Source of the DNA: an uncultured Bacteroidales bacterium
GTDB lineage: Bacteria > Bacteroidota > Bacteroidia > Bacteroidales > Paludibacteraceae
Direction of reading: 5' to 3'
Assembly: GCA_902774075.1 (NCBI GenBank)
Contig: CACYGT010000001.1
Location: forward strand, 7,820 to 71,819
Length of the DNA stretch: 64,000 nt
Each line of letters opens with the position of its first letter. Position 1 is the first letter of the stretch. Below are positions 3 through 13,527 of the stretch, piece by piece. The position numbers were made by a program, and so were the translations under genes. Under the pieces are notes generated by a model. It did not search any database, was not told where the DNA came from, and saw nothing but the letters and a program-made list of their open reading frames with translations.

Positions 3-3000
3 GTGTCGGTAGATGTGGAGGGTGATATGTCACAGCTTAAAGCACTTTATGCTGATTTTGATTTGCCTGCAACGAAATTTGCTGAAGATGAAGAAGGCGA
101 GTGGACTTGGGCATTAGGCGCTACTCCGGCAGAAGTCTTAACTCCGATGAAAGGGCGTGCTAATTTAGTAATCACATATACCGCTAAAGCGGGCATCGAG
201 GCAGGAACAAAGCGAGCAACCTTTGTGGCTAAGATGCAAGGAACCAATCCGTCAACGATCAATATTCCTTTGTCCGTTGAGGTTCGTCCGGCCAGCGTCA
301 ATGAGGCAAGTGTAAAAATAGGAGATGCAGAGCCAGTTGGATATGCCACATTGGCAGAAGCTGTAACGGCAGCTAATGCTGCATCCGGTGATGTTACTTT
401 GACCTTGTTGCGCGATGTTTCCGATGCTGTTGTACTGAGCAATAAGATGAAGTTAGATTTGAACAGTTATACACTCAGTAATAATCTGGCAATCGGCTCC
501 GGAGGTGATGTAGAATTGGTTTACAATAAACAAGGTGGTAAAATCACTAAGACAGTTGCTGTTCAGAACGGAGCCACACTAACATTGAATGGCGGTACAA
601 TAGAAGTGAGCGGAACGGGTAGTATGAATCCCGCACAAGCTGTAGTTGCAGTTAATGTGGCCGACGGAGGTAAACTCATCCAAAACGGCGCAACCATTAG
701 CGCAACTGCTTCGACTTGTTATGCCATCGGTATCAATATTGACGGAGAAGCAGAGATAAAAGAGGGTTCTGTTACGGCCCATGCAAATTATACGGCCGCT
801 TTTGCAACGCAAGTTAGTGCAACAGGTAAACTGACTACTACCGGTGGTACGATGAATGCCTCTGTGGATCAGTCGCACAACCCAACAGCCAATCCGGCCG
901 ACCAATCCACATGGTCGAATGCATATGCAGTATATATAACTGCCACAACCGGTAAGGCTGATATTCAAGGTGGTACATTCTATTCTACTTCATCGTACAG
1001 TGGCGCTTTTGCTGTTAGTGCCATCGCGTCATTCGGTAAGTTGACTATCGGGAAGAATGCAGTAGTCTCAGCTCATACAGTTAGCAGTAGTCCTGTGGCA
1101 TATGCGGTTGGTTGTATGGGTAATGCGGACTTGACGGTAAACGGAGGTCGATTCTCTGCTACATATGTAAAAAGCGAACAGACTACACCGTGTCCTCCGT
1201 TCCTTTGCGCAGCCTTTGACAAACTTGATTTCAAAGCCGGAATTATTAAAGCTGATTCGGCTTTTGTGCGTGCCGGCATGTTCCCTGTTACAATGACCTT
1301 GGTTCAGCCAAAACTCTACAATGTGGTAAAGGGTAGCAAAGATTATAACGATGGTTATCGCTATATTGCCGTGTCAAGTTCCATTACAGCTCAAAACGAT
1401 TTAATTGCTATTGGCATTCCGGCAGCACGTATCGGTACAGTGGGTTATACCAAACTAGAGGATGCTATCGCATATGCCAACAACAATCCGAATGAAGAAT
1501 TGGTAATCTTCTTGCAGAATAACTATACGTTACCTGCCGGTTATTACACGATACCCGCCAAAGCGACATTGGTTATCCCGATGAGTGACGAACAATCAAA
1601 GGAAGCTAATGCTTTTCCTCCTCGCGTTTCGTATAATGACATGGATGATTCGCATCCGTATGTAGAACCAACAGAGTTCCGTCGTTTGACTTTTGCAAGC
1701 GGTGTAAACATGGATGTGTTTGGAGATGTAGAGATGACCTGTACGCAGTTTGCTACTAATGAGGCTTATTCCGGTCAGCCGGTAGGTCCTTATGGACACT
1801 TAGTCATGGAAGAGGGAAGTCATATGACACTGCAAGCCGGTTCGGAACTGCGCGCATGGGGATATATGACAGGAAAGGGAGAGACGGATGCTCGTCGTGA
1901 TGCCACCGTTCGCGAGATGTTCCAATTAGGAGACTGGAAGGGAGCTATGACATCGGTAAAGATAACGGGCATGGCGCCTGGTTTTGTGGCAGATGATAGT
2001 GACAAAAAAATCTTCCCGGTTTCTCAATATTTCATCCAGAACGTAGAGTCTCCTGTGAAGTACCATCCGGGAGCAGTACTTTCCACTTCGGCGATGGTAT
2101 CCGAGGGATTATCAGGTTTCTTGGCAGTCACGATGTCTGCTTCCGACATTAAGGTAGTAGGCGTTTCGAACCGCACCGGAGGTGTTAGCGATGAAGCCAT
2201 CTTCCTCCTGGATAATGGAGCAGATGCTGACAATACATGGATACGTAAATGGTATGACGCCGAAAATGACATTCAAGTCTATGATGTCAATAGTGCCGCA
2301 CATATCGGTTCTATGGTATTGGATATGGGAGAATTGGACGTGTCGTTCATTATACCAGGAGCAAAACTTCCGGTGCGCCTCAATTCCGCAAAGTTCGATT
2401 TACCTATCACATGTAATATGAAGATTCACCTTCTTTCTGGTTCGATGGACTTCTTGCAAAATACCAGCCTATTGCCAGGTGCGGAAGTGGAGGTGGATAA
2501 GGAGTCGATAGTACAAGTAGCTAAAGACGATGAAGATCCCGAACATACCGGTGCACTTTATGTCTATGATGCCGAAGACTGGGACACATACGCCTTTTGT
2601 AAAGCCGTAGGCGAGCCTGATGGCGAAGCTTACACCAAGACAGTGCGTTACGCGCCAAGTTGGAACGGTCGTCCCACCAAGCGCGCAGAGAATGTATGTC
2701 CTCCTTCTGCTGCTATTAATGTGCATGGTACGTTCACTACGGCCACCGGATTTGTATACTGTTCGGAGCATGGCGCTAATATTTTCTCGAGTAATGAAGA
2801 TGCTGGTACATTTATCTTTAACGAAGACGCATCAGCAGCAGGCACCAGGATAGTCAATAATGTAAAAGGGGAGAGCACTTATGAGGAACGCACTTTCTAT
2901 CCTGCTAAACTGAAACATAAAGATGGAACGTTTGCGGATACTGAGTCTGCCGTTAGCGGTGATTCCTATTGCTATCAAGAAAATCGCTGGGAAAGTATGC

Positions 3001-5909
3001 GTGTGGATGGTTGCTTCATGGTTAACCATGGAATATATTATGCAAAACCACAAGAATATGTGGCTTTGGCCAATGGTATGACGGAGAATAGCGACCATAC
3101 GTATAGCGATGCTGCCGGAGCCGGACGACTCTTTATTTTGATGGGCGACGAAAGCTGTCAGTGGTGGGAGGTTGAGAAAAAAGACAATCTATACCATTGT
3201 ATCCATCCTGATAATGATACGTATTATTACTGGAAACCAGAAGAGCATGATCCGGACGATCCGGATGCTGTTATTCCTGCTCATTGGGAGGAGAAAAAAT
3301 ATACTATCTCTTGGAAAAACTGGGATGGTACGTTATTAGAGACTATCGGTCCGAAGGAATTGCCGGTAACCAGCTATGAAGTGACCTATGGTACAATGGC
3401 GGAATACCTCGGCACGAACCCGACGCGTGAAGCTACTATCGACTATACGTATGACTTCACCGGTTGGTCTCCGACGCCGGGCAGAGTAACGAGTGACGTG
3501 ACTTATACGGCTACTTACACCGAGAAACCGCGTATGTACACCATCATCTTCTGCCAAGAAGGCGGCGTGGAGATTGAGCGCCATTTCCTTACGCATAACG
3601 AAGTGCCCGTCTGCGAGAACGTACCCACAAAGGTAGGTCATATCTTGCAGTGGAGTCCGGCTATCGCCGCTGTGACGGGTGATGCGACCTACACGGCTAC
3701 CTGGCTTGAGGAGCCACCTACGGAGTTTGAGATTAAGTTCGTTGATTATGATGGTACAACCGAGCTGCAGAAGAGCAACGTAGCAGTAGGCACCATACCG
3801 GCATACACCGGTGAGACTCCGAGTGGAAAACCCGCCACAACTGAGTTTACGTATGTCTTTGACCACTGGTCGCCGACGGTGACAGAAGTGACACAAGCGA
3901 TGACCTATACGGCTGTCTATCGAGAGCAGCAAAAGACCTATGAGATTATCTTCTTGGATGAAGATGATAGCGAAATAGAGCGTCATAACTACACCTACGG
4001 TTCGACACCGGTTTGTGCCGATCTGCCAACGAAGGCTAACACAGCCGAATGGACCTATAAACTGTCATGGGATCCTCAGATTGAAACCGTGCGAGAGAAT
4101 GCCACATACAAGGCCGATTTTGATGCGCTCAAGACAAAGAACAAATATACCGTCTCGGCTAAATGCAGTCCTGCCGGTGCGGCTACTATTACCGGCAATG
4201 GTATATATGAGTATAATACCGCCTCCAACGCGGTAACAATTACGCTGACAGCTAATACAGGCTTTACTTTCCAAGGATGGCAAGATCTCAGCGATAAGAC
4301 CATCACCAACCGTACAACAGCTGTGACGGGCGATGTAAACTTGTTGGCCGTCTTCACTGTAGCCGATCCAGACTATACCATCACGTGGAAGAGTGAGGAT
4401 GGTAATACCACTTTGGCCTCTGTTGGTCAGAAAGCCAATACGGTAACAACCTACACCGGCGCAACGCCGACGAAGGAAGCGACTTCGGCTTATATTTATA
4501 CCTTCGACGGCTGGACGACCGGCGCGAATGGAACAGGTACGTTCTACAAGAACAACCAGACTCCAAAGGCAACAGCCAATGCGACATATTTTGCACACTT
4601 TGCAGAGGAGGCTATCCCGAGTTTGGAGATCTCGAGCGGAACAACGGTATTGACCGAACCGGTAGAGTATCAGAACCTGATTATTAGTTCGGATGGTGTT
4701 AACTCCGGAGAGTTGTTGGGTATTGACAAACTGAGTCTCACAGGTGATGCGTTCTTCGATTTTAAAGTAAACATGAAGACGCATACATGGTATGCAGTGG
4801 CTGTACCCTGGGAAGTTGATTTAACTGACGGCGGCGTACTACTGAATGGTCGTCCATTAACCATCACCACAGAGTACGATGTGATTTATTACAACGGCGA
4901 ACGCCGTGCCGAAGTGGGCCCGCAAAAGACATGGGCTTATGAAACAAGCACGATGCATCCAGGCACTTTGTATTTAGTTGCACTCATGGGTTCTGCACCA
5001 AATGGCCTTCGCTTCAAAGCAAAATCGCACAATATGGCTGATCTGATGAACACCAGTGCCTCTGTTCATCAATATCCGGAGTCAACGGAAAATGATGGTA
5101 AAGATGCGGGATGGAATGGTGTGGCTAACCCTGCTATTTTCCAAGCGTTTGTCAATGCAGGAGCAACTGTTGGTCAGGCCTTTAATTCAGAGACTGGGGG
5201 ATACGATGTAGTGCCGTTACAGACGACAAGGATGGTTGTAGGACAAGGTGTATTCATCCAAGCGCCTGCTGATGCGACCGTCAATGTAGCATATGGTGCT
5301 TCGTATAATAGTTCCGCACCAATTGCAGCTGCACCGCGTCGCGCTGCCGAAGAAACAAATCTGAATGCTTATTACGAAGTTCGTATTTCTCCGATGGAAA
5401 AGCCATACACAGATCGCCTCTTTGTACAAGTTAACGACGATAAAGAGGAAGATGTCTATACGATAGGGAAGGACCTTATCAAAATGGGTATCAGTGATCA
5501 AAAAGCGCAAATGTGGATTAAGCGCTATGATACCAAATTGTGTCTCAATGCAATGAAACCGTCCGACGACAAGGCTGAGTTCCCATTGGGTATCTATGTG
5601 CCTGAAACCGGCGATTACACGATCGGCATTAAGCATGAGGCAGATGAGGAGTCGTCGATCTATCTGACTCGTGATGGAGAGGCTATTTGGAACCTAAGCA
5701 AGGGCGCATATACCACCGAAATGGCATCCGGAACGACGGAACAATATGGTCTGCGTGTGATTGCGAAAGCACCAACGGTTATCACCGGCTTCGACGAAGC
5801 GGTTGTAGACAGTAGAGATACTATTGCGACCAAAGTGCTGATTGGCAACCAAGTATATATAATCCGCGGTGATGAGGTGTACACCATTACCGGTATGAAA
5901 GTGAAATAA
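3..5909 (+). CDS. Giant secreted adhesin-like surface protein, 5'-partial (ORF open to the window edge; at least 1968 aa)
   Basis: Uninterrupted 5.9-kb ORF with no signal peptide at the window-edge N-terminus, so it is truncated. It has a G/T/A/N-rich beta-helix-like region and about six tandem Listeria-Bacteroides-type repeats. A ~400-aa C-terminal module (WYAVAVPW, DAGWNGVANP, APRRAAEE, AQMWIKRYDTKLC) is colinear with the 6305..10369 product. Confidence 0.85.
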   Translation: MSVDVEGDMSQLKALYADFDLPATKFAEDEEGEWTWALGATPAEVLTPMKGRANLVITYTAKAGIEAGTKRATFVAKMQGTNPSTINIPLSVEVRPASVNEASVKIGDAEPVGYATLAEAVTAANAASGDVTLTLLRDVSDAVVLSNKMKLDLNSYTLSNNLAIGSGGDVELVYNKQGGKITKTVAVQNGATLTLNGGTIEVSGTGSMNPAQAVVAVNVADGGKLIQNGATISATASTCYAIGINIDGEAEIKEGSVTAHANYTAAFATQVSATGKLTTTGGTMNASVDQSHNPTANPADQSTWSNAYAVYITATTGKADIQGGTFYSTSSYSGAFAVSAIASFGKLTIGKNAVVSAHTVSSSPVAYAVGCMGNADLTVNGGRFSATYVKSEQTTPCPPFLCAAFDKLDFKAGIIKADSAFVRAGMFPVTMTLVQPKLYNVVKGSKDYNDGYRYIAVSSSITAQNDLIAIGIPAARIGTVGYTKLEDAIAYANNNPNEELVIFLQNNYTLPAGYYTIPAKATLVIPMSDEQSKEANAFPPRVSYNDMDDSHPYVEPTEFRRLTFASGVNMDVFGDVEMTCTQFATNEAYSGQPVGPYGHLVMEEGSHMTLQAGSELRAWGYMTGKGETDARRDATVREMFQLGDWKGAMTSVKITGMAPGFVADDSDKKIFPVSQYFIQNVESPVKYHPGAVLSTSAMVSEGLSGFLAVTMSASDIKVVGVSNRTGGVSDEAIFLLDNGADADNTWIRKWYDAENDIQVYDVNSAAHIGSMVLDMGELDVSFIIPGAKLPVRLNSAKFDLPITCNMKIHLLSGSMDFLQNTSLLPGAEVEVDKESIVQVAKDDEDPEHTGALYVYDAEDWDTYAFCKAVGEPDGEAYTKTVRYAPSWNGRPTKRAENVCPPSAAINVHGTFTTATGFVYCSEHGANIFSSNEDAGTFIFNEDASAAGTRIVNNVKGESTYEERTFYPAKLKHKDGTFADTESAVSGDSYCYQENRWESMRVDGCFMVNHGIYYAKPQEYVALANGMTENSDHTYSDAAGAGRLFILMGDESCQWWEVEKKDNLYHCIHPDNDTYYYWKPEEHDPDDPDAVIPAHWEEKKYTISWKNWDGTLLETIGPKELPVTSYEVTYGTMAEYLGTNPTREATIDYTYDFTGWSPTPGRVTSDVTYTATYTEKPRMYTIIFCQEGGVEIERHFLTHNEVPVCENVPTKVGHILQWSPAIAAVTGDATYTATWLEEPPTEFEIKFVDYDGTTELQKSNVAVGTIPAYTGETPSGKPATTEFTYVFDHWSPTVTEVTQAMTYTAVYREQQKTYEIIFLDEDDSEIERHNYTYGSTPVCADLPTKANTAEWTYKLSWDPQIETVRENATYKADFDALKTKNKYTVSAKCSPAGAATITGNGIYEYNTASNAVTITLTANTGFTFQGWQDLSDKTITNRTTAVTGDVNLLAVFTVADPDYTITWKSEDGNTTLASVGQKANTVTTYTGATPTKEATSAYIYTFDGWTTGANGTGTFYKNNQTPKATANATYFAHFAEEAIPSLEISSGTTVLTEPVEYQNLIISSDGVNSGELLGIDKLSLTGDAFFDFKVNMKTHTWYAVAVPWEVDLTDGGVLLNGRPLTITTEYDVIYYNGERRAEVGPQKTWAYETSTMHPGTLYLVALMGSAPNGLRFKAKSHNMADLMNTSASVHQYPESTENDGKDAGWNGVANPAIFQAFVNAGATVGQAFNSETGGYDVVPLQTTRMVVGQGVFIQAPADATVNVAYGASYNSSAPIAAAPRRAAEETNLNAYYEVRISPMEKPYTDRLFVQVNDDKEEDVYTIGKDLIKMGISDQKAQMWIKRYDTKLCLNAMKPSDDKAEFPLGIYVPETGDYTIGIKHEADEESSIYLTRDGEAIWNLSKGAYTTEMASGTTEQYGLRVIAKAPTVITGFDEAVVDSRDTIATKVLIGNQVYIIRGDEVYTITGMKVK
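3300..4605 (+). repeat. About six tandem 65-75 aa Listeria-Bacteroides (InlB B-repeat-like) units inside the giant CDS
   Basis: Recurring pattern Y(T/E)IxF/W..(D)G......YG..P......P(T)K......Y.F.GW.P....V..(D)ATYTA.Y. Examples: YTISWKNWDG...TYTATYTE, YTIIFCQEGG...TYTATWLE, FEIKFVDYDG...TYTAVYRE, YEIIFLDEDD...TYKADF, YTITWKSEDG...TYFAHF. Confidence 0.6.
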
Positions 5910-5926: not shown

Positions 5927-6058
5927 ATGAAAAAGAAAATGTATGTAGCACCTCAAGTAGAGAAAGTGCAATTGATGGCAATGGGTATCTTTATGGGTAG
6001 TACTGAGCCACCCATAGATCCCAACCAGGCTCCTAAGAATGGCGCTCCTATTCCCTAA
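5927..6058 (+). CDS. Micro-ORF (43 aa), MKKKMYVAPQVEKVQLMAMGIFMGSTEPPIDPNQAPKNGAPIP, paired with the upstream giant gene
   Basis: Hand-translated (below the ORF-track length cutoff). ATG lies 17 nt after the giant gene's stop and is followed by a strong terminator. Its N-terminus is conserved with the micro-ORF at 10372..10515 (M-x-K-K/R-M-Y-V/I-A/S-P-x-V-E), with synonymous codon differences at P, V and E. Confidence 0.5.
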   Translation: MKKKMYVAPQVEKVQLMAMGIFMGSTEPPIDPNQAPKNGAPIP

Positions 6059-6079
6059 CATGGAAATTTAGAGCGAATG

Positions 6080-6120
6080 AAAAATCGCATATGCGTGAGG
6101 CGTGTGTGCGATTTTTTTTT
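6080..6120 (+). terminator. Rho-independent terminator ending the giant-gene + micro-ORF unit
   Basis: AAAAATCGCATATGCG-tgagg-CGTGTGTGCGAT followed by T9. Roughly 12-bp stem (6084-6095 / 6101-6112, some G-U pairs), 5-nt loop, A-run before and T-run after. Confidence 0.8.
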
Positions 6121-6183
6121 GTTTGCTAAAATGTTAGTTTTGCGTTGCAAAATGTAGATTTTTCGCATTTTTTTGATCTTTTT

Positions 6184-6215
6184 CTTGCGTATTTCCAAAA
6201 AAAATTGTACCTTTG
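6184..6215 (+). promoter_or_regulatory. Bacteroidetes sigma-A type promoter (-33 cTTG, -7 TAccTTTG) for the 6305 gene
   Basis: TACCTTTG at 6208-6215. CTTGCGTAT at 6184-6192, 20 nt upstream, with an A8 tract in the spacer. Same extended pattern as the other promoters in this window. Confidence 0.6.
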
Positions 6216-6304
6216 CAGCGCTTTTTAGCGTTGCACGCCTATTTTCGTGTGCATGTGCGCGAGAGGCGAAAGAGAAAATAGAGAAATATTTAAATGCATG
6301 AAAT

Positions 6305-9300
6305 ATGAAAATAAAAGTGTTTGATATGAGAAAGTTTTTTTACACACTGAGCGTATTAGTTTGTTTGCTCGGGGTGAGTGGAAATGCGTGGGCAGGAGGT
6401 AGTACTACTTATTACTCTGCCTTGAAGGCAACAGTGTCTTCAACGGGTGGCGGAAAAGTATATGCCGGAACATCCAATAGCGCCGGAACGTATGTGGAAG
6501 GCACTTCGACATCCGACAAGCAGTCCTCAACAACGCAAAATGAAGCAAAAAATTTCTATGCTTTTGCGCAATCCAATGACGGCTACTCTTTTACGGGCTG
6601 GAGCACTACAAAAGGAGGGGATGTCGTTTCGACGGACAACCCGTATAAGGTAACCGTAAACTGCTCGTCTTCTACGGAAAGCAGTCCTACGACTACAACG
6701 GTGTTTGCTAATTTTGTAGAGAACGTTGCCATTTCTGTTAATTTTGTGCCGGGTACGAACGGTTCTTATACCGTCAATGGTACCAAAGTGAGCACTTCGC
6801 CTTCTCAGGCAATCACCTGCGAGGGAGAGGTTTCTTTGGCGGCAACCCCTGCTTCGGGATATAAGTTCTTTGGCTGGTACACCAGCACCGATGGCGGAAC
6901 GACGAAGAACTATTTCTCCTATTCGGCATCTACTTCCCATACTTTCTTGGCGGCCGCGACGGTATATGCTGAGTTTATTTCGTCGTCCGTAGCCACCTTT
7001 ACTGTAAAAGGGACGTCGGACTATTATTACGACTTGGCGAAAGGACTCACAGCAGCAGCTTCTTCGTCTTCTAAAGTGTTGGTTGTAGCGACAAATGGTA
7101 CTGTGGCTGCGGGTAATTATACCATCCCAAGTGGAGTGACGTTGCTGGTGCCTTATAATGATGGATATACGGTTAAGACTACATTGCCGGCGTACGAGAA
7201 TAATAACAATAATGTAAAGACGCGCTCGCTGTTCAGACAACTTACGCTAACGAGTGGAGTAAGTTTAACGGTAAGTGGATCTATGTGCGTTGGTGGTAAT
7301 TTGCATGCGAGAAATGGTGGCCAAATGACCGCTACAGTGTTGGATAACTATGGACGTCTTCAGCTGGAAAGCGGAAGTAATGTTATTTTGAATGGTAACT
7401 TATACTGTTGGGGGTATATTACAGGAAGCGGTGCTATAGATGCACGAAATGGTTCTGTAGTTTATGAACCATTCCAAATGGATTTCCGTGGAGGTACACA
7501 CTGTTCAAATACCTATAAGAGCGCTTTCCCTATGTGTCAATATTACGTTCAAAACATAGAGGCTCCTATAACTTTTAATAATGGCGCAACGGAAACGTTA
7601 GTTACATGTTGTTATGCGAGCTATTCGTTGTATGATGGTACGGCATCGTTCATAGGTAGTAACGGCATGTTTAGATTGGAGCCTGGGTCGAAGCTTACGC
7701 GCCATTATGATGGTGCAAAAGATAGGCAATGTTATGATTTGTATGGTAATGCTTCTATACAAGACATATCCGTTTCGGTAAGTGTTATGAAGTTGGCTTC
7801 AAAAGACTATGTCCTTCCTATTAATAATAATATGGATTTGACAATTCATAGCGGCACAACAACAATTTACTATGATTTATCTTTGTTGCCGGATTCAAAA
7901 GTGATTATTGAAGAGGGGGCTACTGTGGAAGTGAAGAAGAATCTATATATCTACGACAGAAGTGATTGGCGTAATGAAGAAACCGGTTATGGTTATTTTG
8001 GAATAGGCGCAGATATAAATCCTGTTCCTTATTCCCCGACAAAAACAGGAAGCAGAACGTCTGCAGGGCTTACTGATGCACATGTGGTTGTGAATGGCAC
8101 ATTAAAATCGTTGAGTTCGAGCGGGAAAATCTATACGACTACGCATGGAGCAGACATTTGTTCAACAGGTGATGGTAAAATCGTTTTGGGTGTTGCACCG
8201 ACAAGTACATCTTCTTTTAAACAGGGTATTTCCACGGCAAGTAGTGTACAAGACGTTCCTGTGAATGCTGCCAAACTACAAAATGCCGATGGTTCTTATC
8301 TCGCCACATCAGGATCTGCTGCCAATACCACCATCAACTACAAGAACGGTCACTGGGGATGGGTTGGAATATGGAAGAACGGAGATGAAGTTCTCAAGAC
8401 AGTGAATGTTTGTACAGAAAATCTTTTAGTAGTAGACAGTGCTCCGGCACTCCCCCAACCATATTCTGATGAGGATTACGAATACATATGCGAAGGATGG
8501 ACTCCGGTTAGAAACGGAGACAAGCAGGAAATCGTTTATACGCCCAACTTTAGAGATCTTCCTATTATTAAGTTTAAGATGGGAACGAATCATAAATCAG
8601 AACACAAACAAGCTTATGACTACGACTCAATTCCTTCTTATAACGCTCCCAACTGCTATGGAAAAAATAATAAGTATATCTATGAGTTTATTGGATGGAG
8701 CGAGACTGCAGATGGAGAAATATTGGAGACTTTATTGCCAGTCACGGGTCCTAAAACGTATTATGCACAATATAGGGAAATTCCGAACCTCGAAATAGGT
8801 AATGTACAAACAGGCGAGGAACAGGGAGAGCCACAGTCTGATCCAGAGGTAGAAGAAAGAACGGTGAATGAGTCCTTTACTGTCGACACGACAACGATTG
8901 GAGATAATGGTTCATTGATTGTAACGACCAAAAATGACAATCATGTTACTCTTGAAACAGAAGTAATAACAGTACAAGACGGAGGTTCGATTACTATTGA
9001 AGAAGGTGCTTCTATTAAGACGGATGAGTTCGTGCTGGAAGCTACTCTCGGAGTTATCGAAGATACTAATGGAGATAACATTACCGTCATACCGAACAAT
9101 TCTTCCGGCCAGGTAAATGGTGGTGACAATATTAAAGGCAGACCGGCAGAACCGACTGCAGAACCGACAGAGCCAAAAGTTTACTTCAAGCTCGCTCATA
9201 AAGGAGGTTTCAAGAAGCGCACTTGGTATGCTATTGCAGTACCTTGGACAATCGATGTACCTCACCACGCAGAGGGTGGTATCTCCATCTACAAAAATGG

Positions 9301-10369
9301 TGAATACAAGCCTCAAAAATTAAGTATAGATTTCGACGTTCTTCGTTATGACGGAGCAATGCGTGCATCGATGGGCAATGTGTCGGATTGCTGGACTTAC
9401 ATTGATGATGTAGAAGGATATGACAAAACGATGAAGCCGGGTGTATTCTATATGATTTATCTGACAGAAGATGCAGATGCTATTCGTTTTGAGAAAAAAG
9501 CCGACACTAATTTCCATTTTGGCAATGAGGTAGTAACGACTCCGGCTCCCACAGACGAAACAGGCGATGCTAACTGGAATGGCGTTGCGAACCCGAACAC
9601 CTACAACGCCACCGTTAACAGTCCTGGTGTGTTGGTAGGTCAATGCTATGTGGTAGATAGTGAAGGCCAAGGAAGCTATCACTCGATTACTTTCGCTGAC
9701 GAACAACTAAGTGTTGGTGTGCCTGTCTTTATCCAAACGGAGGCTACATCGATTGTGGTTAACAATCCGTCATCAACACCGGCTAGCGCTCCTCGTCGTT
9801 TGCTCGAGGCAGAACAGAAGCACGATGGTCTTGTTGAAGTACAGATTGCGCCGAAGGGCCTGCACTATAGCGACCGTGTATTCTTGCAGACTGAAGAGGG
9901 AAAGAAAGATATCTATTCTATCGGTCAGGATGTAGTAAAAGCCGGTACTAGCCGCCGTATGGCTCAAATGTGGATTGATCGATACGATAGTAAGCTTTGT
10001 ATGAACACCGCTTCGGCGGTAGACAACACCGCTACATATCCGTTAGGCATTTCCATCCCGAACGCTGGCACGTTTACTATCAGCGTTCCTGCTGATAAAC
10101 TGAATGGAGACGAGGTTTATCTTACTAAAAATGGTAGAATCCTTTGGGATCTGAGTGCAGGTGAATATACTGCAACGTTCGAAAAGGGCACGACGACCGA
10201 ATACGGATTATTGCTTGTTCGCAACAAAGCACCTGAAGCTACGCAGGGCGTAGATGAAATCAACGCAGGAGCAGACGGTCAAGGCGCTATGAAAGTGCTG
10301 CTGAATAACCAAGTTTATATCATCCGTGGTGGTGAGATGTACACCATTACCGGTTCTAACGTACAGTAA
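6305..10369 (+). CDS. Giant secreted adhesin-like surface protein (1354 aa), paralog of the 3..5909 product
   Basis: Signal peptide (best from the Met at 6326: MRKFFYTLSVLVCLLGVSGNAWA). GYxFxGW repeat units. A central block colinear with the paralog (LFRQLTLTSG.., CWGYITGSGAIDARNGS.., CQYYVQNIEAPI). C-terminal module: WYAIAVPW, DANWNGVANP, APRRLLEAE, AQMWIDRYDSKLC, NQVYIIRGGEMYTITG. Confidence 0.9.
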   Translation: MKIKVFDMRKFFYTLSVLVCLLGVSGNAWAGGSTTYYSALKATVSSTGGGKVYAGTSNSAGTYVEGTSTSDKQSSTTQNEAKNFYAFAQSNDGYSFTGWSTTKGGDVVSTDNPYKVTVNCSSSTESSPTTTTVFANFVENVAISVNFVPGTNGSYTVNGTKVSTSPSQAITCEGEVSLAATPASGYKFFGWYTSTDGGTTKNYFSYSASTSHTFLAAATVYAEFISSSVATFTVKGTSDYYYDLAKGLTAAASSSSKVLVVATNGTVAAGNYTIPSGVTLLVPYNDGYTVKTTLPAYENNNNNVKTRSLFRQLTLTSGVSLTVSGSMCVGGNLHARNGGQMTATVLDNYGRLQLESGSNVILNGNLYCWGYITGSGAIDARNGSVVYEPFQMDFRGGTHCSNTYKSAFPMCQYYVQNIEAPITFNNGATETLVTCCYASYSLYDGTASFIGSNGMFRLEPGSKLTRHYDGAKDRQCYDLYGNASIQDISVSVSVMKLASKDYVLPINNNMDLTIHSGTTTIYYDLSLLPDSKVIIEEGATVEVKKNLYIYDRSDWRNEETGYGYFGIGADINPVPYSPTKTGSRTSAGLTDAHVVVNGTLKSLSSSGKIYTTTHGADICSTGDGKIVLGVAPTSTSSFKQGISTASSVQDVPVNAAKLQNADGSYLATSGSAANTTINYKNGHWGWVGIWKNGDEVLKTVNVCTENLLVVDSAPALPQPYSDEDYEYICEGWTPVRNGDKQEIVYTPNFRDLPIIKFKMGTNHKSEHKQAYDYDSIPSYNAPNCYGKNNKYIYEFIGWSETADGEILETLLPVTGPKTYYAQYREIPNLEIGNVQTGEEQGEPQSDPEVEERTVNESFTVDTTTIGDNGSLIVTTKNDNHVTLETEVITVQDGGSITIEEGASIKTDEFVLEATLGVIEDTNGDNITVIPNNSSGQVNGGDNIKGRPAEPTAEPTEPKVYFKLAHKGGFKKRTWYAIAVPWTIDVPHHAEGGISIYKNGEYKPQKLSIDFDVLRYDGAMRASMGNVSDCWTYIDDVEGYDKTMKPGVFYMIYLTEDADAIRFEKKADTNFHFGNEVVTTPAPTDETGDANWNGVANPNTYNATVNSPGVLVGQCYVVDSEGQGSYHSITFADEQLSVGVPVFIQTEATSIVVNNPSSTPASAPRRLLEAEQKHDGLVEVQIAPKGLHYSDRVFLQTEEGKKDIYSIGQDVVKAGTSRRMAQMWIDRYDSKLCMNTASAVDNTATYPLGISIPNAGTFTISVPADKLNGDEVYLTKNGRILWDLSAGEYTATFEKGTTTEYGLLLVRNKAPEATQGVDEINAGADGQGAMKVLLNNQVYIIRGGEMYTITGSNVQ

Positions 10370-10371
10370 CT

Positions 10372-10515
10372 ATGAGCAAGAGAATGTATATTTCCCCGAT
10401 AGTTGAAGTGCTGAACGTGCTGACAACTGAAGTTATGCAGGATCATGCATCCACCGGTGGCAAGCCGGAAGGACCCACATCTGTGATAACACTCAAAGGT
10501 TTTGCTATTGAGTAA
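10372..10515 (+). CDS. Micro-ORF (47 aa), MSKRMYISPIVEVLNVLTTEVMQDHASTGGKPEGPTSVITLKGFAIE, paired with the upstream giant gene
   Basis: Hand-translated. ATG lies 2 nt after the stop of 6305..10369 and is followed by a terminator homologous to the one at 6080..6120. N-terminal motif shared with the 5927..6058 micro-ORF. Confidence 0.5.
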   Translation: MSKRMYISPIVEVLNVLTTEVMQDHASTGGKPEGPTSVITLKGFAIE

Positions 10516-10538
10516 AAGGTCATAATCCAAGTATTCGC

Positions 10539-10576
10539 AAAAATCCCATATTCGCGAGAGCGGATGTGGGGTTTTT
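10539..10576 (+). terminator. Rho-independent terminator, homologous to 6080..6120
   Basis: AAAAATCCCATATTCG-cgagag-CGGATGTGGGGT followed by T5. Roughly 12-bp stem (10543-10554 / 10561-10572). Same layout as the first terminator, with paired substitutions that keep the stem intact. Confidence 0.75.
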
Positions 10577-10648
10577 GTATGCAACTTGGTGATTTTTTGT
10601 ATATTTGTTACACAAATAATACAATTTTGACTTTTTTTTCTTAAAAAA

Positions 10649-10707: not shown

Positions 10708-13527
10708 ATGAGTATGAAACGATTATATAAAATGGTTTATACATGCGCTCTTTTTTTAGGACTGAGCGCTGGTATTTATGCGCAAAAACCCGGAGAAGCC
10801 TGCGAGACGGCTATTGAAATGACAGAGGATTTTGCCGTACAGATTACCAAGCCTCAAACGGTGTGGTATTCGGCATGGACGTTCGATCTGCCATTGACGG
10901 TTCAGTTTGCCCCGCAGAACAACAACAAAGACCCCAAGTATGCGCCGGATGTGGAGATGGATTTTACTTGCACTCCCGGCTTTTATGAGGATACGATTTT
11001 GTGTCGTCTGTTCTGCGAGACAAGCGGTCAGAGTGGTATTTCTTATGACCTGCCGCATAAACCTAAGCTCAACACAAAGACTTTGGATGACGGAACATAT
11101 GTGTATTATCTTTCGTTAGGCAAGCAATATCGCGACCTGCTCTTGATGGTGGGTATCAGCTACAACATACAAGTATTCGTCAAAGTGAACTTCAAGTGCG
11201 CAGGCGAGTTGAGTCTGGCGCCGGATGATTTGTTCTCCAACTGTGTGGATGGCGCTAAGTTCATTCGCTTGGGTGATACAGTACAAGTAAAACCGCAAGA
11301 TAAGAAACGTCACGTGATTGTTCCTTACGTACAATGGCAGAACGATACGATCCGCTATAAATGGGAGGGCGCAAAACCTTGCACCTTGGCAATAGCGAAC
11401 AAATGCGATTTTGACCCGACGATATCAGATCCAGAAATTCTGGATAGCAGAGTGCTGAAAAACGGGGATTCCTTGACGGTTTCTTCTGCCTTGATGACGG
11501 AATATGTGAACAACCAAATAGACTATCCGAACGAAGCAGGTATGTACTTTGCTAAGTTCTATAGCGAAGAGGCCGGCACCATGCATATCGTTTTGGCTCC
11601 TCCTGCTCCTGTTCGCGGCGGTGCAACCTTATTGCGTCATAACAAGACCTACGCGCTAAATGCAAATGAGAAAGCGATTTTTGCCCTTCCGGATTATTGG
11701 AATGACAATACGATGCATACGTATTTCTCTACACCTACAGAACATACCTTCCGTATGACGATAGCCACCGATCCGGACTTCTCTCAAGAGCACGTATTGA
11801 AGACCTATCAATTCGAGCAAGCCTCGAGTGGACACTGGTTAGGTATCTTGGGTAAAGAGATGAAGACTTTGTGGGAAAAAACAAGTGAGAAATATCTCTA
11901 CGTGCGATTCGATTGCTCAGAGGCAACGACAATTTCGATTTCCAATTGGAATCCGTCATCCTGTCTTAAGAATACAGCCAACTATATTAATTCTTCAGAC
12001 ACCACCTTTACTGTACAAAGAGATTCTCGAGATGGAGTGTATAAACTGAATTATGCCAAATGGGTGGGAGGCGACATGATCCTTACTTTCTCTGTGAAAA
12101 ACGTCTGCAAGGTTTTTGTAGCGACGGATTGTAATATTACATTGGGAACCAATACCACAGAAGCTCCCAATCTGCTGTATTATAAGCAATTCACACAAAC
12201 AGTTGATAAAATTACCATAGCCGAACAAACTGTTGCTTCATGGGCCGAACGCGTGGATGAGGAAGGTTTTATCTACATGCGTATAAATCACACACTGCAA
12301 GGTTCCGGTTATAAAATACGTATCGAATCCAAGGCCCCGGCTGATGCGGATCCTGTTTATGAAAAAGCTACCCTATCTGTCGCGTGTGATGATAACAATA
12401 ACGTGGTTGTAAACGTAAGCGAATCGCAGTATGTAACCGTCAAAGATAATGCAGGCACTACGGTTGATTCATGGAATGCAACACCAGAGACGTCGCATGC
12501 GCTTGACCTGGATGCAGAAACCTACACCGTTATTGGATACGACGAAGAGATTACTATCAATCCTTCCGCTCACCGCGCTATCGTTCCGGCTCAACGTGCT
12601 GCAGGTACAACCGCGGATATGCCTACCCGCGTGACAGACACAACAGCACTAACCGTACAAAGCGGAAGTAACTATATTCGTCTGCAGCCTATCAACACGC
12701 CGGCGACTATTACCTATCTGCCGAAGGCTGCTTTTGGTACAAAGCCTTCTGCCTACATAGGAGAGGAAGAGATTGCAGCCCAAGCAGAGTTCGCAGATTG
12801 TGCTACGGCATGGAAATGGGGAATCACCCGTTTCGATGAAGCACAAACGATAGAGATCAAGGCGCATGAGTATGCCACAATCTTTGTAGAACCCTATGTG
12901 TGCCCAAGAAGCACTTTTGAGCAAATAGAAGCATGGGATAGTCTGGAATGGAGAGGAACTACCTATACTAAGGGCGGTAAATATGTGCTGCAGCACACGA
13001 ACGATCACGGTTGCGAGTGGAGCCATACATTGCAACTCACCATCCGCAAAGCCTCTTATTTCTGCGAGGGATTTAACTACGAGCATGATGAAAACGGAGA
13101 TGGCGTTCTTATTTCGTACAGACAATACATCTACGAATCGCCAGCGGAATGGGATTATATGGACGGTGTAGAATTGCAGCATGATGGCGGAAAAACATTG
13201 ATGGACTTGCATAAAGCGGAAGAGAACTTGTATAAACATTATACGGACAGCCTGATGCCGATCACAGCCATCTCGTGGAGTCACCGCCCTGAAGGCAAGA
13301 AGACCTACGAGCCGATTACGGTGGAAGACGAACCGCAATGGATAGAGGCCGGTTCACTGGCGCTGCGCTTGCAGTTCCTCTGCGGCGAGACGTACAGCAC
13401 GAGTTATGTGACGGACATCGATAACGTGGATGCAGATGCGACGCCGGTTAAGCGTATTGAGAACGGCCGCGTCATCATCCTCCGCGGTGGTGTCAGATAT
13501 GATATGCTGGGGAATGTAATTAAATGA
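10708..13527 (+). CDS. Secreted multidomain surface protein (939 aa) of the 'WY-domain / GC-x-S' family
   Basis: Signal peptide MSMKRLYKMVYTCALFLGLSAGIYA. N-terminal C..A......WY domain (GEACETAIE...TVWYSAW...FTCTPG). A C-proximal module, W.G.TYT.GG.Y....N..GC.WS..L.LTI. Terminal motif KRIENGRVIILRGGVRYDMLGNVIK, shared with neighbouring proteins. Confidence 0.85.
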   Translation: MSMKRLYKMVYTCALFLGLSAGIYAQKPGEACETAIEMTEDFAVQITKPQTVWYSAWTFDLPLTVQFAPQNNNKDPKYAPDVEMDFTCTPGFYEDTILCRLFCETSGQSGISYDLPHKPKLNTKTLDDGTYVYYLSLGKQYRDLLLMVGISYNIQVFVKVNFKCAGELSLAPDDLFSNCVDGAKFIRLGDTVQVKPQDKKRHVIVPYVQWQNDTIRYKWEGAKPCTLAIANKCDFDPTISDPEILDSRVLKNGDSLTVSSALMTEYVNNQIDYPNEAGMYFAKFYSEEAGTMHIVLAPPAPVRGGATLLRHNKTYALNANEKAIFALPDYWNDNTMHTYFSTPTEHTFRMTIATDPDFSQEHVLKTYQFEQASSGHWLGILGKEMKTLWEKTSEKYLYVRFDCSEATTISISNWNPSSCLKNTANYINSSDTTFTVQRDSRDGVYKLNYAKWVGGDMILTFSVKNVCKVFVATDCNITLGTNTTEAPNLLYYKQFTQTVDKITIAEQTVASWAERVDEEGFIYMRINHTLQGSGYKIRIESKAPADADPVYEKATLSVACDDNNNVVVNVSESQYVTVKDNAGTTVDSWNATPETSHALDLDAETYTVIGYDEEITINPSAHRAIVPAQRAAGTTADMPTRVTDTTALTVQSGSNYIRLQPINTPATITYLPKAAFGTKPSAYIGEEEIAAQAEFADCATAWKWGITRFDEAQTIEIKAHEYATIFVEPYVCPRSTFEQIEAWDSLEWRGTTYTKGGKYVLQHTNDHGCEWSHTLQLTIRKASYFCEGFNYEHDENGDGVLISYRQYIYESPAEWDYMDGVELQHDGGKTLMDLHKAEENLYKHYTDSLMPITAISWSHRPEGKKTYEPITVEDEPQWIEAGSLALRLQFLCGETYSTSYVTDIDNVDADATPVKRIENGRVIILRGGVRYDMLGNVIK

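Follow-up and report, generated by a model that had tools for sequence, protein, structure and literature searches.

Conserved micro-ORFs behind giant surface-protein genes of a Paludibacteraceae bacterium are probable precursors of LPP-like peptides

Why should two giant surface-protein genes each be followed by a tiny open reading frame (ORF) with the same N-terminal motif? A 64,000-nucleotide stretch of DNA (hereafter, the window) from an uncultured Bacteroidales bacterium of the family Paludibacteraceae (assembly GCA_902774075.1, contig CACYGT010000001.1, positions 7,820 to 71,819) raises this question. Micro-ORF 1 (5927..6058 (+), 43 aa) begins 17 nt past the stop codon of giant 1 (5907-5909), and micro-ORF 2 (10372..10515 (+), 47 aa) begins 2 nt past that of giant 2 (10367-10369). 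A preliminary description, made from the window alone, had reported both ORFs with this spacing, placed them ahead of terminators and counted seven identical residues among their first 12, all of which we confirmed. It had also offered partner, chaperone-like or regulatory roles. That they are conserved coding genes tied to the giants stands; these roles are unspecific, and the evidence favors a different kind of product. We find it probable that the micro-ORFs are precursor genes of a pathway for peptides synthesized ribosomally and modified post-translationally (RiPPs) that resembles the linear polyphosphorylated peptide (LPP) pathway, and that they are matured in trans.

The micro-ORFs precede the intrinsic terminators and are therefore part of the giants' transcription units. 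Both terminators are hairpins with a U-run, one at 6079..6117 (+) behind micro-ORF 1 (-21.3 kcal/mol, z -6.4) and one at 10537..10578 (+) behind micro-ORF 2 (-28.9 kcal/mol, z -9.0), and they are related to each other. Translation of micro-ORF 2 is likely coupled to that of giant 2, because its start lies only 2 nt past the stop codon.

Could such a pattern arise by chance? The micro-ORFs have no Pfam or NCBIfam match. A motif scan of the whole source assembly (G000: 95 contigs, given here as C-numbers, 1.8 Mb, 50% G+C, 85.75% complete) revealed a third micro-ORF (G000:C36:17416-17550), which again comes after a giant gene, here one encoding 3214 aa, at a distance of 58 nt. When we searched all 9313 small ORFs of the genome with a hidden Markov model (HMM) of the family, exactly three matched (E <= 2.5e-12), and the next-best small ORF scored E = 0.24. 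This is far beyond chance. Judging from sequence, the micro-ORFs are very probably real translated genes.

The family comprises at least 48 small ORFs of 34-61 aa in Paludibacteraceae and other Bacteroidales. Six-frame profile searches of related genomes recovered about 20 further members in the window's genus, which consists of Paludibacteraceae metagenome-assembled genomes (MAGs) of ruminant guts. Members occur sporadically across the order (14 of 301 genomes, at least 11 families), and more turned up near PqqD genes of public MAGs. A word-based homologue search with a three-peptide profile returned the genome's own three peptides only, and neither the peptide profile nor the PqqD protein retrieved anything useful from sequence searches of the PDB. 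The family adds dozens to hundreds of unannotated genes that lie beneath the usual annotation cut-offs.

Alignment of the 48 peptides reveals a leader of the form K-K-x-Y-x-x-P-x-x-E in which Tyr and Pro are invariant (48/48) and Glu nearly so (43/48). A hydrophobic stretch follows, then a Ser 17-23 residues past the Tyr in 47 of the 48 peptides (mode +19/+20). The remaining ~19 residues are rich in Gly, Pro, Ser and Asp, hypervariable and unalignable. In micro-ORF 1 the predicted leader covers approximately residues 1-22/25, with K3, K4, Y6, P9, E12 and the conserved S25, and the predicted core is the final ~18-21 residues, terminating A-P-I-P. Micro-ORF 2 carries Y6, P9, E12 and the conserved S27 ahead of a divergent core of ~20 residues.

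Codon usage and strain variation both bear on selection. Among 30 members the invariant Pro is encoded by all four codons (CCT 13, CCG 7, CCA 5, CCC 5), the Glu by GAG 16 and GAA 12 times, and the Lys by AAA 14 and AAG 13 times. Synonymous codons are thus mixed at invariant residues, which argues for selection on the peptide rather than on the DNA, as the preliminary description had proposed from the two copies of the window. The frame is also kept in all strain variants examined. In metagenomic variants of micro-ORF 1, codons 1-27 are unchanged, while the last 48 nt contain seven nucleotide changes, mostly non-synonymous, with all amino-acid changes falling within the last 16 codons; the adjacent giant gene differs by ~1.1-1.3% per nt between the same strains. 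The one change in a variant of micro-ORF 2 is conservative and lies in the core. As far as sequence can tell, a leader that stays invariant while the tail behind it changes fast marks the peptides as leader/core precursors. On its own account, the tail of micro-ORF 1 deserves mention: its last 16 codons are ~10x more divergent per nucleotide than the adjacent giant (window 6002-6055 versus L087 and L088), mostly through non-synonymous changes, which hints that the core is under diversifying selection or undergoes recombination.

What would recognize such a leader? Its YxxP motif is of the kind bound by PqqD-type RiPP recognition elements (RREs), which led us to suspect an element of this type, and gene neighborhoods in other genomes bore this out. 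In G319, a member of another Paludibacteraceae genus, a type IX secretion system (T9SS) cargo gene (1194 aa) is followed by a micro-ORF (52 aa), PqqD (PF05402, 1e-13), an HprK-related kinase (TIGR04355, 9e-10) and an S24/S26-like, that is signal-peptidase-like, peptidase fused to an ATP-binding cassette (ABC) exporter. An HprK-like gene comes after the micro-ORF in G191, and a small contig of G033 carries PqqD, HprK and an S24/ABC fusion. Most species of the window's genus have a single-copy cassette in a housekeeping region, composed of genes for an HprK-like protein, an S24/S26-like peptidase (147 aa), PqqD (88 aa) and an NTP_transf_5 protein (PF14907, 3e-28).

The order signal peptidase I (SpI)-like peptidase, PqqD, giant and micro-ORF recurs in the related MAG loci L090, L096, L100-L103, L113, L125, L129 and L134. 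A fuller order, in which a ~770-aa tail protein and a ~180-aa secreted protein come before the peptidase, PqqD, giant and micro-ORF, is found at ~45 related MAG loci; micro-ORFs behind giants could be tallied at MAG loci only where the end of the giant lies inside the fetched stretch. A micro-ORF ending A-P-x-x-x-x-P-V-F follows giants of the same orthologous group (tail K-V-L-I-x-N-x-x-Y-I-I-T-P-E-G). The ~180-aa secreted protein ends C-N-C-F-x-Y-x-P and has no family match (L090-L134; L001:20-586 in G000), and in the G000 clade it always sits between the ~770-aa tail protein and the SpI-like peptidase.

The association also holds at a distance. A profile of the SpI-like peptidase matches in 51 of 301 genomes of the order, and the peptidase is present in 13 of 14 micro-ORF genomes compared to 38 of 287 others (Fisher p = 3e-10, uncorrected for kinship). 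The 13 genomes with both span many families. PqqD homologues occur in 19 of 24 genus genomes and in G033, with none in 15 other sampled families, and PqqD is present in every genome that has a convincing micro-ORF. G278, a complete genome, has its peptidase-ABC fusion 1.3 Mb from two tandem micro-ORFs (L045:1286-1614; 48 and 55 aa) that stand directly behind one T9SS cargo gene. The leaders of this tandem pair share L-M-D-N-D-I-S-L-A-L-E-S-P-F-G-D-P-E, and their tails diverge.

Candidate enzymes can be found in the window's own genome. Immediately upstream of the third giant and its micro-ORF lie a homologue of the SpI-like peptidase (G000:C36:5582-6046) and a PqqD gene (G000:C36:7052-7330; PF05402, 1.1e-15, above cut-off); the micro-ORF is ~10 kb from these two genes, with the giant gene intervening. 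A second peptidase-PqqD pair, 73-75% identical to the first, is on C81 (peptidase C81:3-443), and the edge of C17 begins with the end fragment of a third PqqD. The peptidase scores below cut-off against TIGR02228 (6e-5). Across 28 homologues its Ser30, His73 and Asp93 are retained, and the AlphaFold2 (AF2) model (pLDDT 84.6) best matches LexA/UmuD and the type I signal peptidases SpsB, SipA and SEC11. Contig C23 carries an NTP_transf_5 gene (G000:C23:28086-29183; PF14907, 117 bits, above cut-off) and, 11 kb away, an HprK-like gene (G000:C23:40563-41438) with a tblastn match of 1e-6 to the G319 HprK-like protein and weak Pfam P-loop/PEPCK matches. In the genus, HprK-like homologues adjoin the peptidase in the cassette. 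The PqqD and peptidase genes on C36 are separated by a PD-(D/E)XK gene (PDDEXK_3, 9e-31; L001:1017-1871, G000:C36:6016-6870) flanked by two near-identical ~200-nt stretches; an insertion appears to have driven the two genes apart.

These enzyme types are those of a recently described system. LPPs were reported in Bacillota, where the SpI-like LppS, the RRE LppB, the HprK-like LppK and the NTP-transferase LppN are encoded together with an exporter in lppA-K-B-S-D-N clusters (Popov et al., Nat Commun 2026, PMC13381572). The Ser at core position 3 is poly-phosphorylated by LppK, and cleavage by LppS requires that the leader be presented by LppB (PMC13381572). The precursors are 35-200 aa long with a conserved N-terminal YxxPxVLxHQxIxFETxxS and variable C-termini, and the biological role of the products is unknown according to the authors (PMC13381572). 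Bacteroidota do not appear in the main text of that study, and its supplementary table lists two Bacteroidales SpI-ABC fusions with a neighboring RRE, in cluster 8 of the sequence similarity network (PMC13381572). A 2023 survey of Bacteroidales RiPP clusters does not contain this system (PMC10352776), and we found no mention of these peptides in the other literature searched.

The Bacteroidales genes resemble the LPP system in having a soluble, archaeal-type SpI-like leader peptidase with a Ser/His/Asp triad, a PqqD RRE that is a discrete protein, a putative HprK-like kinase, and an enzyme of the NTP_transf_5 type, and in lacking a cyclase and a B2 protease in the cassette. The precursors are likewise short, with a YxxP leader, a Ser soon after the predicted cleavage site and hypervariable C-termini. 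They conform to the RRE-binding motif as defined for LPPs, [Y/W]xxPx[L/V/I/F/A] (PMC13381572): the residue two past the Pro is T in 16, I in 12, V in 11 and M in 3, and V, V and M in the three copies of this genome.

By analogy with LPPs, we infer how binding, cleavage, phosphorylation, export and a role with the giant might fit together. The precursor would be co-transcribed with the giant gene, because the micro-ORF precedes the terminator. Its leader (K-K-x-Y-x-x-P-x-V/T/I-E-V...) would dock as a beta-strand on the discrete PqqD-type recognition protein, and the HprK-like kinase would phosphorylate the conserved Ser 19-21 residues past the Tyr. The soluble SpI-like Ser/His/Asp peptidase would then cut the leader off a few residues before that Ser; with the Ser at Y+19/20 as the putative phospho-acceptor, cleavage may fall about three residues ahead of it. 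The NTP_transf_5 enzyme may attach a further group, and an ABC pump would export the ~20-residue Gly/Pro-rich product. In this genome the enzymes would act in trans, from peptidase and PqqD genes on C36 and C81 and kinase and nucleotidyltransferase genes on C23. A kinase/peptidase/PqqD cassette is widespread among Bacteroidales of the rumen and gut with no visible adjacent precursor, and the micro-ORFs are candidates for its substrates.

Several differences from the Bacillota system should be kept in mind. The host phylum is Bacteroidota. The micro-ORF precursors are scattered, mostly far from the enzymes, rather than inside a biosynthetic cluster, and the enzyme genes of this genome are split over three contigs. 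Instead of lying in capsule loci, the micro-ORFs are directly behind giant surface-protein genes with a conserved C-terminal module, and some relatives have the peptidase in one protein with an ABC exporter. The new elements are the phylum, the scattering of precursors away from enzymes and the strict pairing with the C-terminal module of the giants.

Other observations weigh against assigning the micro-ORFs to an LPP-like pathway. The extended Bacillota leader consensus is not matched, as there is no HQ and no F-E-T; the hydrophobic stretch and the Ser are the only features common to it and the micro-ORF leaders, and the Ser is at Y+19/20 rather than Y+18. Near both micro-ORFs of the window enzyme genes are absent, with HipA/HTH (helix-turn-helix) and unrelated genes upstream of giant 1. 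The HprK-like matches, here and in other genomes, are far below curated cut-offs. We identified no dedicated exporter in G000, and none beside the cassette genes: the best ABC match (C2:32619-34484) adjoins lpxK and is probably the housekeeping MsbA, and the peptidase-ABC fusions are those of G319, G033 and G278. One micro-ORF genome, G227 (86% complete), gave no peptidase match, and six genus genomes with PqqD gave no micro-ORF match with our weak first profile. Finally, the micro-ORFs might in principle belong instead with another PqqD/HprK/radical-SAM cluster, which is on C48.

How well do other explanations account for these data? The micro-ORFs could be unmodified small partner proteins that help the giants in secretion, folding or anchoring, with the enzymes co-occurring only through shared lineage. 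The strict pairing with the module (all three module-bearing giants of the genome), the homologous cargo-peptide pairs in at least five families and the distance of any enzyme gene from the two micro-ORFs of the window would all fit such helpers. We nevertheless consider this rather unlikely. The leader has the RRE-binding YxxP motif, homologues in G319, G191 and G033 neighbor genes for PqqD, the kinase or the peptidase-ABC fusion, and micro-ORFs accompany the peptidase in 13 of 14 genomes over many families. A conserved N-terminus with a hypervariable C-terminus is also typical of leader and core, not of a folded partner. Still less do the micro-ORFs behave as mere relics, that is, chance ORFs with no product that a duplication of a giant gene's 3' end brought with it. 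Giants 1 and 2 are indeed paralogous and the terminators behind their micro-ORFs related, yet codons at invariant residues have turned over synonymously, every strain variant and ~48 homologues of several families preserve the frame, and the three matches among 9313 small ORFs are separated from the rest by a 10^11-fold gap in E-value. This reading is disfavored, and we give it very little weight.

If the micro-ORFs are RiPP precursors, they could belong to a pathway other than an LPP-like one. A second RiPP-like cluster lies outside the window (locus L170, G000:C48:1997-11126), with two radical-SAM genes, a PqqD-like gene, a 48-aa ORF, two HprK-like genes and a radical-SAM gene, followed by genes for a radical-SAM/SPASM protein, an ABC exporter and an NTP_transf_5 protein. 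It could be the source of the modifying enzymes, or both pathways could be mixed, given that it has its own PqqD, two HprK-like genes, exporter and NTP_transf_5, and that its 48-aa ORF (C48:4213-4359) starts with an M-K-K-S-Y-A-Q-P leader. That ORF, however, is an adjacent precursor of the cluster's own, with a Tyr/Cys/Gly-rich core unlike the micro-ORF tails. The C48 PqqD is distant from that on C36 (E = 0.07), and the micro-ORFs track an SpI-like peptidase across genomes whereas C48 has none, so that we find a link to this cluster distinctly improbable. A lasso-peptide precursor is suggested by the leader, which resembles the YxxPxL type bound by lasso B1/PqqD proteins, and by the weak match of the PqqD to lasso PqqD models (NF033530, 9e-5). 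Yet the B2 leader protease (PF13471) was not found in G000 (85.75% complete), the leader peptidase is of the signal-peptidase type, and no Asn-synthetase-like macrolactam cyclase occurs in the neighborhoods of G319, G007, G012, G000 C36 and 80 PqqD loci (a genome-wide PF00733 search was not made). With no B2 protease found and no cyclase in the inspected neighborhoods, we rejected the lasso reading, which is very unlikely.

An LPP-like pathway for the micro-ORFs leaves the question of why its precursors should stand behind giants. Giant 1 (3..5909 (+)) is truncated by the window start; the full gene (G000:C1:7141-13728) encodes 2195 aa that include Listeria-Bacteroides repeats, a C-terminal module of ~400 aa and a tail of 25 aa. 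Its paralogue, giant 2 (6305..10369 (+), 1354 aa), has the same module and tail. The module of giant 1 (~440 aa, which with the short tail added spans 4497..5906 (+)) is common in this genome only to giant 2 and the C36 giant, and it also occurs in the proteins that precede micro-ORFs in related species.

The tail itself is more widespread. Twenty-four G000 ORFs, including one in the window at 10708-13527, end in a ~25-residue tail of the form K-V-I-x-N-G-Q-L-x-I-I-R-x-G-x-x-Y-x-x-x-G-x-x-V, and a micro-ORF follows three of them, exactly those in which the ~400 residues that lead up to the tail are homologous (identities of 38% across 365 aa, E 9e-64, and of 28% across 376 aa, E 1e-30; other matches E ~1e-4). 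We therefore rejected the 25-aa tail alone as a predictor of micro-ORFs. The tail is a putative lineage-specific sorting signal. It goes unrecognized by the Pfam T9SS C-terminal-domain model: neither giant 1 nor giant 2 matches PF18962/TIGR04183 (Por_Secre_tail), only three G000 ORFs match PF18962, and PorV is present (424 bits). Por_Secre_tail does occur on the proteins preceding micro-ORFs in other families.

Across species, the C-terminal 450 residues of the proteins that precede micro-ORFs can be grouped by homology. The window's giants, the C36 giant, L008, L018 and L024 make up group I; group II shares a shorter stretch only; and group III, with 31-36% identity across ~450 aa, is bona fide T9SS cargo from four other families. 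What is conserved as a unit is therefore a surface-protein module plus a precursor, and the enzyme genes may adjoin it, lie 10 kb off or lie more than 1 Mb off. Placement of the precursors is thus non-random, paired with homologous surface-protein modules across several families, and this pairing makes the role of the peptides testable. Structure prediction for the C-terminal 470 aa of the giant gave an all-beta AF2 model of low confidence (13-row alignment, mean pLDDT 56.7) with no informative fold match, and Foldseek returned generic Ig/FN3-like noise only.

It is tempting to speculate that peptide and giant form one functional unit. The gene pairing suggests a partnership, which is possible, and we advance the idea tentatively, as something we would not bet on. 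In its more specific form, to which we give no greater credence, the matured and probably phosphorylated peptide would serve as a ligand, anchor, assembly factor or signal for the giant's ~400-aa C-terminal module. If true, this would be the first concrete function for LPP-type peptides, and it would lie in the cell-surface/adhesin biology of Bacteroidota.

Two other systems invite comparison. The paeninodin-type phosphorylated lasso peptides of Paenibacillus, which have an HprK-like kinase, a nucleotidyltransferase and a split B1/B2, are alike in their YxxP-type leader with PqqD/B1, HprK-like kinase and NTP_transf_5. Here, by contrast, both the macrolactam synthetase and the B2 cysteine protease are missing; a serine signal-peptidase homologue would remove the leader, and the product would presumably be linear. 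In Bacillus subtilis, SipW is the dedicated signal peptidase for the biofilm-matrix proteins TasA and TapA. We take the common element to be an archaeal-type signal-peptidase homologue that is genetically tied to surface or matrix proteins. Unlike SipW, the peptidase described here has no N-terminal membrane anchor and is paired with PqqD, and its substrate is likely the small peptide rather than the giant.

Two minor features complete the picture. The sequence TAccTTTG is read at 6208..6215 (+), upstream of giant 2, and we tentatively assign it as a Bacteroidetes-type -7 promoter motif on the strength of general knowledge of such promoters; a promoter-like TAccTTTG also lies just upstream of the third micro-ORF on C36. 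At L091:7939-8418, L094:15244-15645, L098:16186-16677, L105:16521-16967, L109:16556-17020 and L124:16303-16785 we observed Cys-rich proteins of 130-250 aa that have no YxxP motif and begin with or contain M-A-Q-A-P-V-A-S-M-x-S-T-S. They sit 100-200 nt past tail proteins of the F-I-K-x-x-Q-L-F-I-L-K-N-G-V-L-Y-N-A-x-G class.

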